From a virus (taxonomy: Duplodnaviria > Heunggongvirae > Uroviricota > Caudoviricetes): a stretch of 35,981 nucleotides of DNA. A model generated the notes under the pieces. The model was not told where the DNA came from. It saw only the letters and a list, made by a program, of their open reading frames with translations, and did not search any database. The stretch covers positions 1-35,981 of IMG/VR virus record IMGVR_UViG_3300044678_001935. One strand, written 5' to 3'. This document shows positions 1 through 8,252 of the stretch, piece by piece. A program made the translations under genes and the position numbers. Numbering within the stretch: position 1 is the stretch's first letter; each line of letters opens with the position of its first letter.

Positions 1-117
1 ACTACTGGTCTTCTACTGAGGCTAGTTCTACTAATTCATGCAACGTGAACTTCAATAATGGTAACCAGAACACCAACAGTAAGACTAATACGAACTGTGT
101 CCGTGCCTTCAGGAGTG
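1..117 (+). ncRNA. DGR template repeat (TR), 5' end truncated by window edge
   Basis: 104/117 nt identical to 2434..2550; all 13 mismatches are at adenines of this copy; rich in AAC/AAT codons in the target frame; ends 7 nt before the RT start. Confidence 0.95.
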
Positions 118-124
118 GGAAATT

Positions 125-1156
125 GTGAGTGACATCACATTAGAGGAAGTCATAACAGCTTATTATGATTGTAGAAAAAATAAAAGGAACACTCAACAAC
201 AAATTAAGTTTGAATTTAAATTAGAATCAAATATTTACGATCTTTATAACGAACTTAAAAACCGAACATATAGACCGTCTTCTCATATCTATTTTATTAT
301 AACTAAACCAAAACCAAGAGAAGTTTGGGCTGCTAATTTTAGAGATAGGATAGTTCATCATGTTCTTTATAATAGAACAAAAGACATAGAAAATAATTAT
401 ATTTCAAATACTTATGCCTGCCTGAAGTCTAAAGGAACTCTTAACTGTGCATACGACGTACAGAAAAGTTTGAGAAAACTTTGGCCAGAAAAAGATGTCT
501 ATAGGTTTATTCATGTGGATATCGCTAATTTCTTTGTATCCATTGATAAAAAGGTGTTAAAAAAATCATTTCTACCAACTATAAGAGATGAATTTTCTAA
601 TTATCTTGCTAATATTTTTATTGACCAAGACCCAACTAAAAATTACTATTATAAAGGCGATCAAAAGTTAAGAAGACTTATAATTGAAAGAAAAACTCTT
701 TTCAATAAAGATACAGGATTACCAATTGGTAATTTAACATCACAATTGTTTGCAAATTTTTATTTGAGTGATTTTGACCATTATTGTAATTCTTTGACTC
801 CGTATTACTTTCGTTATATGGACGACATGCTTTTTTTAATACCTAAAACAACTAATAGGAGTCAATTCTTAGAAAATATTAATAATTATCTTAAAACTCT
901 TAATCTTAAATTAAACGATTCTAAGACTAAGCATAATAGACTTGATGTTGGAATTAATTTTGTTGGTTATGTAATTAGACCTTTTTCCATATATGTTAGA
1001 AATTCAACAAAATACAGAGCAAAAAGAGCCATAAATACCACATCTATAAACTCATACTTCGGTCTTTTAAGAAAAGTTAATACATACAATTTAAGAAAAC
1101 ATATCGCAACAATCAATAATTTAAACATGTTTTATTATCAAAAAATCATTTTATGA
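125..1156 (+). CDS. DGR-type reverse transcriptase
   Basis: 343 aa; motifs KPKPREVWAANFRDRIVHH, DIANFFVSID, GLPIGNLTSQLFANFYL (DGR-type GxxxSQ), YFRYMDD, GINFVGY; no maturase/endonuclease extension; GTG start. Confidence 0.95.
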   Translation: MSDITLEEVITAYYDCRKNKRNTQQQIKFEFKLESNIYDLYNELKNRTYRPSSHIYFIITKPKPREVWAANFRDRIVHHVLYNRTKDIENNYISNTYACLKSKGTLNCAYDVQKSLRKLWPEKDVYRFIHVDIANFFVSIDKKVLKKSFLPTIRDEFSNYLANIFIDQDPTKNYYYKGDQKLRRLIIERKTLFNKDTGLPIGNLTSQLFANFYLSDFDHYCNSLTPYYFRYMDDMLFLIPKTTNRSQFLENINNYLKTLNLKLNDSKTKHNRLDVGINFVGYVIRPFSIYVRNSTKYRAKRAINTTSINSYFGLLRKVNTYNLRKHIATINNLNMFYYQKIIL

Positions 1157-2058
1157 AAACAATAATAACAATAGATGGTGGCCTTGGTCGCGCCATCACT
1201 GCCTTGCCTGCATTGATTTATTATGCACAACATAATAAAGATTTTAATGTAATGATTCATGGTTGGGATTTTGTAACCTGGGGAATTCCAGAATTACAAA
1301 ATAGAACATTCAACCCTGAAACCAAAGGAGTCTTTGATAATTATTTCTGGAATGCTGATAAGGTTATCGCACCAGAGCCCTATAGAATTCCTGATTATTA
1401 TAGAAATGAAATCTCTCTAATAGAGGCCTTTCATCAAGAAATCAATAATTCAACAGATTACGATAATTTACCAAAAGATTATTTTAGGCTTTCGGTTTTT
1501 GAAGAACTGAAAGGTCATGAGGTTGTTCATTATGCAAAAGAGCATCAGAAAAAACAAAAAACTATTGTAATTCAGCCTTATGGTAGTACAGCCAATAAAT
1601 GTCCGATGGGAGTTTATGATCCATCATTCAGGTCTATTCCCGAGAAGATGTATGTTAAGTTAGTCAATCTCTTATCAAAAGACTTTAATATAATTTATAT
1701 GGGAGCTGTTGAGTTTCAGGACTATCTCTCTTATAAACCTCAACCAGATCCGAGTCTAAGAGATTGGGCTGGTATTATTAAGGCTGCTGATTATTTTATT
1801 GGTTGTGATTCTTGTGGTCAACATATGGCAAAAGCCGTGGGTAAGGACGCATCTGTATTTCTAGCCGGAACTCATAGAAAGAATGTATCTTATGAGGACT
1901 TTCATATCATTGAACGGGATGATCATTATTATCCGGCTCCTATGAGAATTTGTTCTTATGATAGTACCTTGGCTTGTAGATTAAATGAAGATAGAATAAA
2001 CTTTACCGAAGATGAAATTATGGAGACCTATGAACAGATTATGGAAAGAGCTAAATAG
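1153..2058 (+). CDS. Glycosyltransferase family 9-like (ADP-heptose:LPS heptosyltransferase-like) protein
   Basis: N-terminal DGGLGRAITALPAL, VIQPYGS and IKAADYFIGCDSCGQHMAKAVG resemble GT9 motifs; ATGA overlap with the RT stop. Confidence 0.7.
   Translation: MKTIITIDGGLGRAITALPALIYYAQHNKDFNVMIHGWDFVTWGIPELQNRTFNPETKGVFDNYFWNADKVIAPEPYRIPDYYRNEISLIEAFHQEINNSTDYDNLPKDYFRLSVFEELKGHEVVHYAKEHQKKQKTIVIQPYGSTANKCPMGVYDPSFRSIPEKMYVKLVNLLSKDFNIIYMGAVEFQDYLSYKPQPDPSLRDWAGIIKAADYFIGCDSCGQHMAKAVGKDASVFLAGTHRKNVSYEDFHIIERDDHYYPAPMRICSYDSTLACRLNEDRINFTEDEIMETYEQIMERAK
2052..2057 (+). promoter_or_regulatory. T4-like late promoter (TAAATA) upstream of the DGR target
   Basis: TAAATA about 20 nt before the ATG at 2079. 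Confidence 0.55.
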
Positions 2059-2078
2059 TTGAGAGTTATTGAATTTTT

Positions 2079-2561
2079 ATGGCGATAGTAGTAGGTCCTT
2101 CTGATTGGTGGGTAGCAACACCAGATGCTATAAACGGTTTAGCCGCTGCTTGCCCTGAAGGTACTACATTGCCGGATGGAAGTAGAATTATCTGTAGGGC
2201 TGGTGGAGTTGCCTGGATTGTTGCTCCTTCCTCCACGGAAGTTGGTCAGACCTGGAACAATTCAACAACCACATTAGTCGGGAATAAGTGTTGTGTTTCT
2301 GATTGGCCTACGTTATGCGCCAGACTTATTGCTTGTGGATTTAATCCAAATGATTGGTGTGTTCCGAATATGACAGATTTAAATAATCCTGGTTATGTTT
2401 GTAGATCTAAGTGGGATACTTTCTCGGCCACTGACTACTGGTCTTCTACTGAGGCTAGTTCTCCTATTTCATGCGGCGTGGGCTTCTATAATGGTAACCA
2501 GTTCGCCGGCAGTAAGACTAATACGAACTGTGTCCGTGCCTTCAGGCGTGTAACATATTGA
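2079..2561 (+). CDS. DGR target protein, C-type-lectin (CLec/DUF1566-like) fold, probable virion adhesin
   Basis: C-terminal YWSSTE...CVRAFRRVTY is encoded by the VR; Cys-rich; preceded by a late promoter. Confidence 0.85.
   Translation: MAIVVGPSDWWVATPDAINGLAAACPEGTTLPDGSRIICRAGGVAWIVAPSSTEVGQTWNNSTTTLVGNKCCVSDWPTLCARLIACGFNPNDWCVPNMTDLNNPGYVCRSKWDTFSATDYWSSTEASSPISCGVGFYNGNQFAGSKTNTNCVRAFRRVTY
2434..2550 (+). repeat. DGR variable repeat (VR)
   Basis: Versus TR: A>G x7, A>T x4, A>C x2, no non-A changes; 9 codons altered (T>P, N>I, N>G, N>G, N>Y, N>F, T>A, N>G, S>R). Confidence 0.95.
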
Positions 2562-2600
2562 ACTTTGTATTTTATAAACAAATAATTCAGAAAATAACAG

Positions 2601-3194
2601 ATGAAACTATACAGCCCACCCAATAACGGTTTTCCACAAGAGCTTCCTGATAGATGGAAATTTGATAATGGAGAAGTTTATACAAATCTAAAGAGTCTAA
2701 CCGATAATGAACTTTCTCTTCTAGATTGGATTGGTCCGATAGAATATCCGGTAGCAAAACAAGTTGACGATCAAGGAAATCTAATAACACCAGAATGGGA
2801 TTACGACCCAGAAACCCATAGACCTATTTGGTATAAGTATTATCGTAGGTTTATTATTGCGGATAAGAATATTGATGATATGCCATATTTAGATGGTGAG
2901 ATTGTAGAACCTCTTGTTAAACCTGATTGGACAATGTTCCAAAGAACCGCTGTTGCATCTGTAGCATTGAATCAATATATCGCCCAAATGATTCCTTATG
3001 CCCCATTAGCAGCAGTTGCAGTTCCTAGTATTCTAAGAGATGCAATTGCCAAAGGTGATTACGGTGATTTTGTAACGGTCTGGACGACCCTTAAAAGTAT
3101 TATGCCACCGCCACAACAGTTAATAACTGAGATAACAACTCTAGCGACAGCTCTAAATTTACCACAAGAATTTATTGATATTTTTAATACTTAA
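2601..3194 (+). CDS. Putative tail-fibre-associated/assembly protein
   Basis: 197 aa; N-terminal LYS..FPQELPDRW..LTDNELSLLDWIGP resembles proteins found next to phage tail fibre genes; position after the target gene. Confidence 0.4.
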   Translation: MKLYSPPNNGFPQELPDRWKFDNGEVYTNLKSLTDNELSLLDWIGPIEYPVAKQVDDQGNLITPEWDYDPETHRPIWYKYYRRFIIADKNIDDMPYLDGEIVEPLVKPDWTMFQRTAVASVALNQYIAQMIPYAPLAAVAVPSILRDAIAKGDYGDFVTVWTTLKSIMPPPQQLITEITTLATALNLPQEFIDIFNT

Positions 3195-3199
3195 GATTC

Positions 3200-3427
3200 T
3201 CAGTCTTCCATCCGAGTCTTAAGAGCAATAATGGTATTCAATAGAATAATAAGGGTATCGTAGGAGTTTTTCTCAGAATTTTTACATACTTCGGATACAA
3301 TACTTTCTTGATTCCCAAGAATAGAGAATGGTAGTTTAAAATTACAGTTTATAAAGTCTATTGCAACAATACCTATTATAGACAGTGATACTATAAACAG
3401 TAGATTATTGAGACTATTTTTTGACAT
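3200..3427 (-). CDS. Hypothetical membrane protein
   Basis: 75 aa, N-terminal hydrophobic helix; overlaps the upstream minus-strand gene. Confidence 0.55.
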   Translation of the reverse strand: MSKNSLNNLLFIVSLSIIGIVAIDFINCNFKLPFSILGNQESIVSEVCKNSEKNSYDTLIILLNTIIALKTRMED

Positions 3428-3626
3428 GGAATTTCTCCGGTTTTTCTTGATTATGAATCCAAGCCTTCAAATCACGCAAATAAGTTCTTAATAAGTTTGA
3501 TTGGTGTAGATGAAAATCGTCTCCAGTTTCAAGATGCAATTCTGTATGAAGATCAATAGTTTTTAGAATGCTGTGAATCTTAGCATTCCAAGGATCTCTT
3601 GTTTCATTGCTCCATTCTCGTGGCAT
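3414..3626 (-). CDS. Conserved cyanophage-type hypothetical protein
   Basis: MPREWSNETRDPWNAKIH...; start moved to the ATG at 3626; minus-strand TAAATA at 3635..3640. Confidence 0.65.
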   Translation of the reverse strand: MPREWSNETRDPWNAKIHSILKTIDLHTELHLETGDDFHLHQSNLLRTYLRDLKAWIHNQEKPEKFHVKK

Positions 3627-3646
3627 TTTATAATTATTTAGAGGTA

Positions 3647-3702
3647 GCCAATATACAAACTGGCACACAAGCCATGACGTATCCAGGAATCTGTGGTAAT
3701 GT
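3647..3702 (+). promoter_or_regulatory. Early sigma70-like promoter with upstream dyad box
   Basis: GCCA-N10-TGGC, ATGACG -35, TG-G-TAATGT extended -10. Confidence 0.65.
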
Positions 3703-3785
3703 ATCTGGACATTGAGAAATCTTATTATTAGTAATGATTTATTGTTAATTAACTTAAGATTAAAAACAAATTGAGGTGAGTATTA

Positions 3786-4259
3786 ATGGACAGACAACTT
3801 AAAGATGAAATTGAGTCTCTTAAAAATAGACTAAACGAATTAGAAAAACGACTGAATAATCAAAAACCACTTACTATTAATGATGCAACTGTTGGTGATG
3901 TTATGGATGGTAGGTGGATTGTTGGGCATAAAGAAGAAAAGACCGCCATTCTAGTGTCTCCTAGATACTATCAAAAGAAATTAAAGTGGGTTGATATAGA
4001 GGATGCAGCAGACAGTTATCCAGATTTGTTTATACCATCAAAGGAAATTTTTGGCTTAGTTTTTAATAATTTATGTAAGGCAGATAAAATATCAGAAGTA
4101 TTTGAATCATATATGCACTATTGGGCTTCTGATAGTACCGTTGTGAAGCCTAATAGGGTTTATCAAAATATTGTGACCGTTAGTGGTGGTTGTATAGGTT
4201 CTTATGAATTTACTGCACAAGAAGCATATGCCCGTCCTTTTAAATTGGTATGCTTTTGA
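3786..4259 (+). CDS. Divergent CLec/DUF1566-like protein (possible paralogue of the DGR target)
   Basis: Motif order DGRWIV..AILVSP / KW / DLFIPS / YWASD / ARPFKLVCF parallels DGSRII..AWIVAP / TW / DWCVPN / YWSST / VRAFRRVTY of 2079..2561. Confidence 0.45.
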   Translation: MDRQLKDEIESLKNRLNELEKRLNNQKPLTINDATVGDVMDGRWIVGHKEEKTAILVSPRYYQKKLKWVDIEDAADSYPDLFIPSKEIFGLVFNNLCKADKISEVFESYMHYWASDSTVVKPNRVYQNIVTVSGGCIGSYEFTAQEAYARPFKLVCF

Positions 4260-4263
4260 CTGT

Positions 4264-4314
4264 GGCACTTCAACAACTGGTCATGTTGACAAATCTAGGA
4301 ATCTGTGGTAATGT
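4264..4314 (+). promoter_or_regulatory. Early sigma70-like promoter
   Basis: TTGACA(4286)-N17-TAATGT(4309) with TG; shares GGAATCTGTGGTAATGTATCTGG with 3686..3708. Confidence 0.7.
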
Positions 4315-4350
4315 ATCTGGGCACTGTACAATCAATTTTATTATTTAATT

Positions 4351-4728
4351 ATGATAAGCAAACCTATTTTAAGCACAAATAAAAGAAAAATGTCCTGGCT
4401 AGAATACTTTTTCACTCATTGTATTCCAACAGGATTTAAGAATATTAAGGACTCGTTTTATTTTTGGGTTAAACTCCTTCAAGGAGATTTTGAGGATTAC
4501 CGAATCTATAATGGCCGAACTTATAAGTATAGTGACCAAGAATTGTTTGAGTTGTTAAGGAGCGATTTTTGGTATTCTTTAGAGGAGGATATTTTAGAAA
4601 AGGAATTTCTAGAGTATCTTATTGGATTAGCTGAAGATGTTGAGAGTGGAGTTGTTGAAACTATTCCATGGTCTGAGATGGATTATGATGAGTTAATTAA
4701 TCCTATTGGAGATGAAAATCTTGATTGA
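4351..4728 (+). CDS. Hypothetical phage protein
   Basis: 125 aa ORF downstream of a promoter; acidic C-terminus. Confidence 0.6.
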   Translation: MISKPILSTNKRKMSWLEYFFTHCIPTGFKNIKDSFYFWVKLLQGDFEDYRIYNGRTYKYSDQELFELLRSDFWYSLEEDILEKEFLEYLIGLAEDVESGVVETIPWSEMDYDELINPIGDENLD

Positions 4729-4978
4729 ATTTCATAATAATAGTAATGTATCAGAGAAGTGTAAAGTTTTAATTGATGAGTCAATAAATCCCGATTCTGA
4801 GCCCCTGGAGGACTTTATTGCTTTTTTAATGGAGAAGATGGTTGAAGGTTGGGAATATATTAATTTGTCTTGGGGTTATGATAGTGCAGAATTAAGTCTT
4901 CAAAAATATAGAGACGAGACAGATCAAGAATACGCCATACGATTAAACAAGAATAAAAAGGTAAAAGCCGAGGAATAA
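4712..4978 (+). CDS. Hypothetical phage protein
   Basis: ORF in the co-oriented cluster; ATG start chosen. Confidence 0.55.
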   Translation: MKILIEFHNNSNVSEKCKVLIDESINPDSEPLEDFIAFLMEKMVEGWEYINLSWGYDSAELSLQKYRDETDQEYAIRLNKNKKVKAEE

Positions 4979-4983
4979 TTATT

Positions 4984-5892
4984 ATGGAAAACTCTATTAA
5001 GATTCAAGTTATTCATTTAACAGAAGAAGAGTGTTATCTAGTAAAATTAGGTAGCACTTTTAACCATTTTGAAGTTTCCGGTCTAAGGCTCCATGGATAT
5101 CAAGAATCTGTTACAGTAAAATCTCTAGATGAGATTAAGTGTTATCGCACCATTCCTAGTACCATAACCCACTTTGAAAATAATGGGATGATAATGAGTA
5201 ATAGTGATTACAAAAACTCAGTGGATGAACTTCTCTCTAAAGGAGAAGTTCAATTTGATGATTATGTTTTTGATAGTCTAGATGATGAGTATAGATACAA
5301 GAAATTTATTAGAGACTGGCGACCAGTTTATTCTGCATCTTATGAAGAACGCACACCATTAGAGTTTGTTATTACTGAGATTAGAACGAATTCTGGAGAT
5401 CCTGATATTGTCTCATTGTGGAACTCACCAACTCTTAATGATAATAGGTTATATTCTTTTGATAGACGCAACTTTTCCATTAAACATTTTAAGGAATTGT
5501 GTGAAGAAAAACAGTTAAATTACGATATTCCAAACCATGGTGGAATTTGTTATGCAAAAATTGAAATGGCTTATATTTTTGATGATAGTGTTAATTATGA
5601 TAGAAGTCCGACTTTTATTGGTACTCTAGAACAATGTAAAGAATGTAAAAATTCTCTTGCAAAATATATTGAGAATAAAGTTCTCTTATGTACTGCTAAA
5701 AACACTGAGCTTTTAAATTCAAAAGAAGTTCTAGGAAAAATCCAAAAGGTAACAGGAAATTTAGTGAAGGTACAACCAGTTTCAAAATCAAGAGATTCGC
5801 TCAATACGGTTATTAGAGAACTTAATTCTTTAGCTGCTAAGATTGAAGCCGATATTATCAACAATGTAAAGGAAGAGGAAAACAAATCATGA
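4984..5892 (+). CDS. Hypothetical phage protein (C-terminal coiled coil)
   Basis: 302 aa ORF, no recognisable motif. Confidence 0.7.
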   Translation: MENSIKIQVIHLTEEECYLVKLGSTFNHFEVSGLRLHGYQESVTVKSLDEIKCYRTIPSTITHFENNGMIMSNSDYKNSVDELLSKGEVQFDDYVFDSLDDEYRYKKFIRDWRPVYSASYEERTPLEFVITEIRTNSGDPDIVSLWNSPTLNDNRLYSFDRRNFSIKHFKELCEEKQLNYDIPNHGGICYAKIEMAYIFDDSVNYDRSPTFIGTLEQCKECKNSLAKYIENKVLLCTAKNTELLNSKEVLGKIQKVTGNLVKVQPVSKSRDSLNTVIRELNSLAAKIEADIINNVKEEENKS

Positions 5893-6290
5893 TTATTGAA
5901 CCCAAAACAAATATTAAAGTTAAAACCGCATTGGAATCAAATAATGTGGATCAAATAAGATCTCTTTTTGAAGAATCAAAAAACACGCAAATGAAAGTTT
6001 GTTACGAAAAAACAGAAACTATTTTTTCCGGTAAAGTTATTTTTACTGGTAAAGATTTAACTATAGAAGACAGACGTAAAACATACGTTTTAAGGAATTT
6101 ATGTAAAAATCTCCATACCCCGAAAGATATTTTAGAATCTTTGATTAAAATGGGTTATTGGTTAATGTATAAAGAATCTTTTTGCTCTGATGAGTTGAAA
6201 ACCCAAATTGCGAGTTTATGGAATGACTCTAATAATATAGTAGGTGAGTATATCATCCCTCCAAATTTTAGAACTATTGTTTGTAAGTAA
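5889..6290 (+). CDS. Hypothetical protein with one degenerate LRV-like motif
   Basis: ATGA overlap; LCKNLHTPKDILESL resembles NPNTPxETLExL. Confidence 0.6.
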   Translation: MIIEPKTNIKVKTALESNNVDQIRSLFEESKNTQMKVCYEKTETIFSGKVIFTGKDLTIEDRRKTYVLRNLCKNLHTPKDILESLIKMGYWLMYKESFCSDELKTQIASLWNDSNNIVGEYIIPPNFRTIVCK

Positions 6291-7164: not shown

Positions 7165-7351
7165 ACATCTTTGTGATGGACATTCCCCATATTATGTTAT
7201 TGAAGAATCTGACTTGTCTAACGAGGAATGGACTACCTTTAAATCGGAAGGTATCAAAAATCAATATAGCGAAAATATTTGTCCAGTATGCGGAGGATTA
7301 CATCTCATGCAAGGTGATGGGGAAATTCTCTATGGACATTGCGATAAATAA
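7136..7351 (+). CDS. Hypothetical protein (CPVCG)
   Basis: 71 aa ORF in the cluster. Confidence 0.45.
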   Translation: MLKISGGITKHLCDGHSPYYVIEESDLSNEEWTTFKSEGIKNQYSENICPVCGGLHLMQGDGEILYGHCDK

Positions 7352-7585: not shown

Positions 7586-7969
7586 ATGTCATTATTTTCA
7601 AATTTTACAATAGACGAAGATCTAGTTGAGATTTTCAAAGAACGAGGAATAGAACTACCAAGTTATAATATTCTTGAAGATGAAAGTGCAATAACTTTTG
7701 AAGAGAAAGATTCTATCAATAAAGATCTAGTTCCTATAAAAGAATATAAAATAACCATCAATAAAGAATCCGCAACAAATCACTATAGTCAGTGGCTTCC
7801 GATTTTTAGAGAGCACTACATGAAGCATCTTTCTCTATCAGAAGATTATTGTAAAACTCTTTTAGATGGATGTCTACTTCAGGGTATTGAAAGAAAATTT
7901 AAGGAAAACCTTCTTCGTGAGGTCATTCAAAAACAAGAAGATTATCGGAGAGAGGTACATGGCAATTAA
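7586..7969 (+). CDS. Hypothetical phage protein
   Basis: 127 aa ORF. Confidence 0.6.
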   Translation: MSLFSNFTIDEDLVEIFKERGIELPSYNILEDESAITFEEKDSINKDLVPIKEYKITINKESATNHYSQWLPIFREHYMKHLSLSEDYCKTLLDGCLLQGIERKFKENLLREVIQKQEDYRREVHGN

Positions 7970-8252
7970 TTTACGCGATTATTATGAAAATAGATTTCAA
8001 GCCCAGTGTATTTTCTCCAATTATGAGACTGAAAGATATGAAAATTTTGGTGAAATCCTATACCATAAAACAGAAGATTTATCCCGAAATATGACTAGAA
8101 AAATCTTTGACACACACAAGATTGTTACAGAAGGATATGGTATTACTGTTTCTATGGATGTTTATGTTTTGACGCCAGATCAGTTGTGTAATATTATCCA
8201 GGCCGCGATGGAAGAGGGTTCAAAATTTTACTTACCAAGAAATTTTTTATGA
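7959..8252 (+). CDS. Hypothetical phage protein
   Basis: Start moved to MAINLRDYY after GAGG. Confidence 0.55.
   Translation: MAINLRDYYENRFQAQCIFSNYETERYENFGEILYHKTEDLSRNMTRKIFDTHKIVTEGYGITVSMDVYVLTPDQLCNIIQAAMEEGSKFYLPRNFL

Follow-up and report, generated by a model that had tools for sequence, protein, structure and literature searches.

The diversity-generating retroelement (DGR) of phage BPP-1 (Rauchvirus BPP1) is the main point of reference for the element described here. Its cassette, mtd-avd-TR-Sp-brt, comprises a target gene with a variable repeat (VR), the gene avd, a template repeat (TR), a spacer, and a reverse transcriptase (RT) gene, and the 144-nt spacer 3′ of the TR is required for (self-)priming (PMC6182149). 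Other described systems that bear comparison are the DGR of Burkholderia phage Magia (MT701587; PMC7883833) and the two-target phage DGRs of gut viromes (tentaclin, PMC10743442). DGRs in lytic and crAss-like phages have already been published (PMC7981956), and the novelty argument of a first-pass annotation of the present DNA, that phage DGRs are known mainly from temperate phages, is dated. The element in question occupies positions 1–2561 of the IMG/VR virus record IMGVR_UViG_3300044678_001935. The window, meaning the whole stretch of DNA that was analyzed, is the first 35,981 nt of this linear 99,981-nt contig, which has an estimated completeness of 41%. Positions 1–2561 very probably form the right-hand part of a complete two-target DGR in a T4-like cyanophage, the targets being putative host-recognition modules.

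Among the major killers of picocyanobacteria are T4-like cyanophages, whose host range is commonly ascribed to recombination and point mutation in fiber genes. In T2- and T6-type phages, the gp38 adhesin is a small protein encoded directly downstream of the distal long-fiber gene, with hypervariable receptor-contacting loops. Variation of gp38 arises by recombination and point mutation, not from a retroelement. A literature search found no paper reporting a DGR in T4-like cyanophages, and metagenome catalogues may include the contigs used here. The mechanism of DGRs is well known; judged from its sequence, this element is a bona fide DGR with the canonical gene order for the first of its two targets, target1.

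Repeats, reverse transcriptase, and targets

The first 117 nt of the window match positions 2434–2550 at 104 of 117 nucleotides. All 13 mismatches fall on TR adenines (13 of 36), for which the hypergeometric chance is 3.7e-8, and all lie at codon position 1 or 2 of the open reading frame (ORF) at 2079–2561, where nine codons are altered. The adenine-specific differences reported in the first-pass annotation are thus reproduced. The repeat was also found independently, as a recurrence of the first 128 nt of the window at 2434–2561. The contig start falls within the TR, with window position 1 being the 17th base of a 129-nt TR core; on the longer contigs L035 and L038, the full TR starts 16 nt upstream of the contig start. 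Over this core, the repeat of target1 (VR1, upstream of the window) and that of the target within the window (VR2, in target2) each differ from the TR at 13 of 129 positions, again all at adenines and at codon positions 1 or 2 (p ~2e-8 for each VR). The core contains 38 adenines and, in the target reading frame, 11 AAY codons. A comparison of the TR with the whole contig, suggested earlier as a check, detected only the two repeat copies, TR and VR2, in 99,981 bp.

The 3′ end of the repeat had been placed at position 117. The 13 all-adenine mismatches over 1–117 stand, but the homology ends at 113/2546. The A>C difference at 114/2547 is common to both VRs and lies inside the AGGAG ribosome-binding site of the RT gene (110–114), which straddles the end of the TR core. 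For these reasons, we read it as a boundary of homology of the initiation of mutagenic homing (IMH/IMH*) type and not as a mutagenesis event. Immediately before it, an 18-nt GC-rich run is identical in the TR and both VRs (window 96–113 = 2529–2546). The TR core end at 113 is 11 nt from the RT start codon, a distance that was 7 nt when counted from 117. Another 15 nt of the target2 ORF follow the VR core. Coordinates are collected in Table 1.

Table 1. Features of the retroelement and the adjoining gene in the window
Feature	Position	Strand	Remarks
TR, 3′ 113 nt of the 129-nt core	1..113	+	same sequence continues upstream in L035 and L038
GC-rich TR 3′ end (96–113) and TR-specific tail (114–124), IMH*-like boundary	96..124	+	tails diverge from 114/2547
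DGR reverse transcriptase, 343 aa, GTG start	125..1156	+	RVT_1 2e-14; phrog_1423 1.4e-80
301-aa passenger gene, weakly GT9/heptosyltransferase-like	1153..2058	+	phrog_8954
Target2, 160-aa stand-alone Lcl_C/DUF1566 C-type-lectin-fold protein	2079..2561	+	Lcl_C 1.8e-5 (below gathering score)
VR2, 129-nt core	2418..2546	+	13 differences from TR, all at TR adenines
VR-specific 3′ tail through stop codon, IMH-like side	2547..2561	+	near-identical in VR1 and VR2; unlike TR tail

The RT gene uses a GTG start codon where a sister strain has ATG. Its product carries the motifs IGNLTSQ and YMDD; in five relatives, IGxxxSQ is invariant and YMDD is kept as well. The best match among solved structures is the 328-aa RT of 8ub7 (1.7e-26), which we take to be the BPP-1 bRT, with Drt2, retron, and group II RTs at 1e-8 or weaker. 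Alignment with the RT of Rauchvirus BPP1 gives 31% identity over 283 aa and brings KPR, PIGxLTSQLFAN, and RYMDD into register. The earlier description of an intact DGR-type RT, with a GxxxSQ-type motif and YMDD, therefore holds, and the protein is closest to the Bordetella bRT; the class assignment is based on motifs, structure matches, and pairwise alignment. In a tblastn search of 50,697 phage records, the top matches are all in phages with known or annotated DGRs at 30–39% identity, including Pseudomonas, Burkholderia, Bordetella, crAss-like, and Bacteroides phages (Magia and BPP1-type phages among them). These are the best 30 of 91 matching records, such that a distant DGR in some cyanophage isolate is possible; among them, the nearest isolate RTs are those of Burkholderia and Pseudomonas phages (37–39%). 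Within IMG/VR, RT identity is at least 61% inside a cyanophage clade (contigs up to 125 kb) and then drops to about 46% and below.

The AlphaFold2 model of target2 has a pLDDT of 88.2, and its best Foldseek match is the C-terminal domain of Legionella Lcl (8q4e; probability 1.00, TM 0.71), followed by C-type lectin-like domains. Together with the Lcl_C match, the model bears out the C-lectin fold proposed in the first-pass annotation. Target1 and target2 are paralogues of one 154–165-aa family, represented by 713 clusters at 90% identity (E <= 1e-10) in a metagenome protein collection. The N-terminal motif GPxxWW does not vary among 70 family members and might serve for docking. Neither Pfam nor the target2 model revealed a separate anchoring domain in the targets. 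Their position and fold make a receptor-binding role plausible. Both targets would be host-recognition modules, perhaps adhesins borne on the neighboring fibers, whose diversification would widen or shift host range. Late expression had been suggested from a TAAATA at 2052, a proposal that finds no support: TAAATA occurs 20 times on the plus strand, and the copy at 2052, in the context CTAAATA, overlaps the stop codon of the gene before it. For the T4 late consensus TATAAATA, 4.5 copies would be expected in the window; there is a single one, and it is on the minus strand.

The complete cassette and its structured RNA

Sister contigs were recovered by exact look-up of the RT and Avd proteins in other assemblies. 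Over 2,654 nt, L035/L039 (3,189 nt) match the window without a mismatch; L038, a 15.5-kb JGI contig, shows 10 mismatches over 4,831 nt. Upstream on L038 lie, in order, an endolysin-like gene, a fiber-assembly gene, and genes for a 791-aa tail fiber, a 108-aa ORF, and a 1,400-aa fiber-like protein. These are followed by target1 (156 aa, Lcl_C, containing VR1), bAvd, a 145-nt non-coding stretch, the TR, the RT, the 301-aa gene, and target2. Between the 1,400-aa fiber-like gene and the start of target1, both on one strand, there are 24 nt. In contigs that are identical to the window, the gene for the 111-aa bAvd precedes the TR by 145 nt. The protein is assigned to PF22296 in the contig annotation, and its L038 version matches phrog_3206, “Avd protein of DGR”, at 2.4e-24 and NF033474 at 8.6e-17 (under the 80-bit cut-off of that family); the homologue in the relative L009 matches PF22296 at 2.5e-18. 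No avd is present in the window or the whole 100-kb contig because the gene lies just beyond the contig end. L035 begins right after the expected end of VR1, and assemblies therefore appear to break at these repeats.

Extension upstream, which the first-pass annotation had proposed, thus supplies the missing 16 nt of the TR 5′ end, bAvd, and a second VR. It also removes a supposed departure from BPP-1. The order TR-RT-GT9-target results from where the contig happens to begin: the longer contigs show target1-avd-TR-RT, and the target in the window is a second, remote one. The claim that the target sits beside tail-fiber genes survives only for the upstream side: fibers lie upstream, off the window, but none adjoins target2 within the window, and no recognizable fiber gene was found downstream of target2 within the window. 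The C-terminus of the 1,400-aa fiber has no similarity to a 117-aa protein of L009. Cassette layouts vary, with one target in L009, two in tandem upstream in L040 (a 236-kb scaffold), and, in the present phage, a target on either side of the RT.

The interval between avd and the TR (L038 10337–10481, upstream of window position 1) holds a conserved structured RNA of ~145 nt. Its fold, a hairpin and a three-hairpin junction (four hairpins with a closing stem), is kept in nine relatives. Compensatory changes occur in 17 of the 36 pairs, and 97.5% of cells are paired compared with 38–48% in slid controls. Invariant single-stranded motifs include GAGCAGAAU and CACGCGAUUU. A covariance model of this RNA matches all same-clade loci. 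Against 82 other DGR loci, it gives, beyond the same clade, one weak match in the expected place, in the 40%-identity relative L057 (E 0.018), and it does not detect the RNA in Magia or a BPP1-type phage. An Rfam search of the whole cassette gave no match. The 5′ RNA may act in priming or in binding of RT-Avd. Structure within the first 180 nt of the RT gene was considered as an equivalent of the spacer and rejected: 2 of 32 pairs covary, and identity at third codon positions is not clearly raised.

By analogy with BPP-1, RT-Avd would copy an RNA that extends from the 5′ structured domain through the TR into cDNA, inserting random bases opposite adenines, and the adenine-mutagenized product would replace VR1 or VR2. 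In two small Lcl-type C-lectin proteins, as many as 11 AAY codons of the ligand-binding face would be recoded by such retrohoming. The 11 AAY codons alone permit at least 8.6e12 combinations.

The affiliation of the phage was judged from a tail protein and from Photo_RC genes. The tail protein matches 260 phage records, all of them Synechococcus/Prochlorococcus phages, cyanophages, or marine viruses. The best matches, at 54% identity, are the Synechococcus phages B23 and B3 (243–245 kb), and B23 is classified in the Kyanoviridae. Photo_RC genes are found 4 kb away in one related strain. By these markers, the source is an uncultivated T4-like, Kyanoviridae-type freshwater cyanophage, and the T4-like cyanophage context recognized earlier is borne out. 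DNA of the phage is present in many lake and freshwater metagenome runs. Neither the RT nor a target was found in B23, the closest isolate. In the phage GenBank collection, window positions 1–6000 have no DNA match, and target2 has no tblastn match.

Natural variation and rival explanations

Related strains provide a view of transfer from TR to VR. In strain L043, the RT is 83% identical and the flanks are about 88% identical. The L043 TR differs from that of L038 by three non-adenine substitutions, and the same three occur in both L043 VRs; the other VR differences are at adenines in 17 of 17 and 14 of 15 cases. The comparison is indirect evidence for directional flow from TR to VR. In L007/L009, 22 of 24 TR/VR mismatches are at adenines. 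Members of the target1 cluster at 90% identity (11 members) differ mainly at TR AAY codons, and target2 orthologues at 78–90% identity are near-constant over residues 1–113 and hypervariable over 114–155. In four lake metagenomes, TR adenines account for 20 of 21 listed variable VR2 positions and, where VR-like contigs align to the TR, for all 10 listed variable positions. One contig from an independent sample spans VR2 into the unique 3′ flank of the locus and carries 18 differences.

Lake metagenomes contain further VR-like segments, seen as loose ends at window 112/2545 and before 2390–2421, with at least four upstream flanks and two 3′ tails. They are absent from the 100-kb contig and therefore point to additional members of the target family, either in strains that occur alongside this phage or elsewhere in its genome, beyond the contig.

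The cassette itself is not universal. Related strains L041, L042, L128, L129, and L130 keep the fiber, target1, the 301-aa gene, and target2 without avd-TR-RT between them. The junction (L041 5447–5520; L042 839–912; L128, L129, and L130 likewise; compare L038 9973–11633) is in an A-run, at the place of the avd ATG and the RT 3′ end in DGR-bearing strains. Both targets are intact where both are readable, and target2 of L041 is interrupted by a scaffold gap only. Presence or absence of the cassette is, as these junctions indicate, a natural polymorphism, produced by loss or gain. Among the scorable VRs of the closer of these strains, differences from the L038 TR are at adenines in 17 of 18 cases for VR1 of L041/L042 and 21 of 23 for VR2 of L128. 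The exception is VR2 of L041/L042, in which 17 of 38 differences are non-adenine. Given the adenine bias, these VRs were probably written mostly by a similar TR. It is conceivable, though doubtful, that avd-RNA-TR-RT forms a dispensable module, carried by some strains and precisely missing from others that always retain both targets, with VRs of DGR-less strains rewritten in trans on co-infection with a DGR-bearing relative and the 5′ RNA serving priming through a fold-back geometry other than that of BPP-1. If so, the mutator would be a resource common to the phage population.

Several observations weigh against an active DGR that diversifies host recognition. No hairpin or cruciform was found 3′ of either VR (Z-scores of +0.7, −0.5, and +1.1 versus shuffles), and the TR-RT interval has no non-coding spacer of the BPP-1 kind. 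The metagenome variation comes from contigs, not reads, such that ongoing diversification inside a single population would be an extrapolation. One VR2 sequence recurs across the window, L035/L039, and L038, and the likely source run carries it at full depth; turnover must accordingly be slow enough for some samples to share a VR2. The strains without avd-TR-RT show that the element is dispensable. Lastly, Magia encodes a 120-aa lectin-fold target with avd and RT among early, non-structural (regulator/recombination) genes.

The identical VR2 across assemblies and samples, including its full depth through the likely source run, and the related strains that lack avd-TR-RT with their VRs fixed would both fit a DGR that is real but inactive in this phage, its VRs being frozen products of past retrohoming and the strain variation inherited. 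The locus of L008 fits as well, with 8 of 20 mismatches at adenines between its TR (7860–7989) and VR (7166–7295); this TR is adenine-poor, looks like a mutagenized VR-like copy, and may be a disabled template or the result of VR-to-TR conversion. In the present strain, however, the RT, Avd, and TR are intact, the TR retains its 38 adenines and 11 AAY codons, and every VR difference is at an adenine with no drift at other bases. Both L043 VRs track their own TR, and close relatives carry many different VRs. Inactivity is for these reasons distinctly improbable. A still simpler explanation dispenses with a retroelement and takes the TR for a pseudogene copy of the target 3′ end, with differences due to divergence or gene conversion among paralogues. 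The TR does read in frame with the target C-terminus, and the targets are paralogous. Yet all 26 core differences in the two VRs are at TR adenines (p ~2e-8 each), the TR lies between intact genes for Avd and a DGR-type RT, and the pattern recurs with a different TR in L043 and, at 22 of 24, in L007/L009. Because the differences are base-specific, this explanation is effectively refuted and retains almost no probability.

The role of the targets leaves more to discuss. They might be soluble or host-directed binders and not virion receptor-binding proteins, even if the DGR is active. The nearest isolate RTs (37–39%) belong to Burkholderia and Pseudomonas phages, with the non-structural setting of the Magia target as a precedent. 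The targets comprise only 156–160 aa with no anchoring domain recognized (Pfam, model), and target2 follows a glycosyltransferase-like gene instead of a fiber gene. Set against this, target1 starts directly behind the 1,400-aa fiber-like gene, the targets of relatives always follow fiber genes, and the invariant GPxxWW would be suited to docking. Binders outside the virion are thus a serious possibility, if an unlikely one, and diversification of host-recognition modules by a two-target DGR is the preferred reading.

A working DGR would give part of this lineage programmed exploration of at least 10^12–10^13 variants of two binding proteins. With a target family of 713 clusters and occurrence in many lake and freshwater runs, the effect on phage–host dynamics in lakes could be substantial. 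Strains with and without the DGR occur naturally and have the same targets, a setting in which the benefit of a DGR to a lytic phage could be measured, and the combination of a 5′ structured RNA with a TR that abuts the RT contrasts usefully with the priming model of BPP-1.

Neighboring genes and comparison with known systems

The 301-aa gene between the RT and target2 has homologues in S-CAM1, S-SSM7, and vibriophages. Its similarity to GT9 (PF01075) is slight (E=0.023, 14.5 bits, under the 22-bit cut-off), the match to TIGR02201 (3.9e-4) is partial (37 residues), and no sequence match was found in the PDB. Since the gene is also kept in strains without the cassette, it is by this evidence not a DGR component. 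In the relatives L009 (9040–12285), L008 (9041–13010), and L040 (12741–16858), a cluster of 2OG-Fe(II) oxygenase, carbamoyltransferase, sulfotransferase, and glycosyltransferase-like genes lies directly 3′ of the RT. An island of glycan- or small-molecule-modifying genes thus adjoins the fiber/DGR block, with the 301-aa gene of the window as a member. Directly downstream of target2 in all strains examined is a 197-aa ORF (window 2601–3194; phrog_28130, no Pfam). Farther on, a 47-nt intergenic repeat occurs at 3675–3721 and 4287–4333 (83% identical), with a partial third copy at 4743–4763. It lies just upstream of consecutive small ORFs (3786, 4351) and may be a shared promoter or regulatory element. 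A deletion was considered at the loose end at 3708, which continues like 4320, and is more simply explained by a second copy of the repeat placed elsewhere.

BPP-1 is among the closest of the described systems. Target1 shares its target(VR)-avd-TR-RT order, the TR/VR differences are confined to adenines, and the VR is at the 3′ end of a C-lectin-fold protein. An identical GC-rich stretch at the 3′ end of VR and TR gives way to TR- and VR-specific tails in both systems, the RTs align at 31%, and a bRT-type structure is the best solved match. There are also differences. A second target lies on the far side of an unrelated gene, 2.4 kb downstream of the TR, and the targets are stand-alone Lcl_C proteins of 156–160 aa compared with Mtd, whose length we take to be 381 aa. 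Whereas BPP-1 has its spacer 3′ of the TR, here the TR abuts the RT gene with the ribosome-binding site within the TR end, and the covariation-supported RNA is 5′ of the TR; none is supported 3′, and no hairpin follows the VR. The host is a ~240-kb lytic-type T4-like cyanophage in contrast to a 42-kb temperate podovirus.

The nearest isolate RTs (37–39%, among the best 30 of 91 records) are those of Magia-type DGRs, which share one or more small lectin-fold targets (about 120 aa), avd, and a TR directly before the RT (PMC7883833). Their setting differs: Magia, a temperate phage of 45 kb, has its cassette among early, regulatory, and recombination genes, whereas here it is at the end of a tail-fiber block. 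The Magia RT falls outside the cyanophage clade of at least 61% identity (at most about 46% outside), and the 5′ RNA model does not detect Magia. The tentaclin DGRs of gut viromes likewise pair one TR with two C-lectin-domain targets (PMC10743442); their two targets have different topologies, whereas those described here are paralogues that flank the RT (or stand in tandem upstream in L040). Likeness to the gp38 adhesins of T2 and T6 is a functional analogy alone, and attachment of the cyanophage targets to fibers is conjecture.

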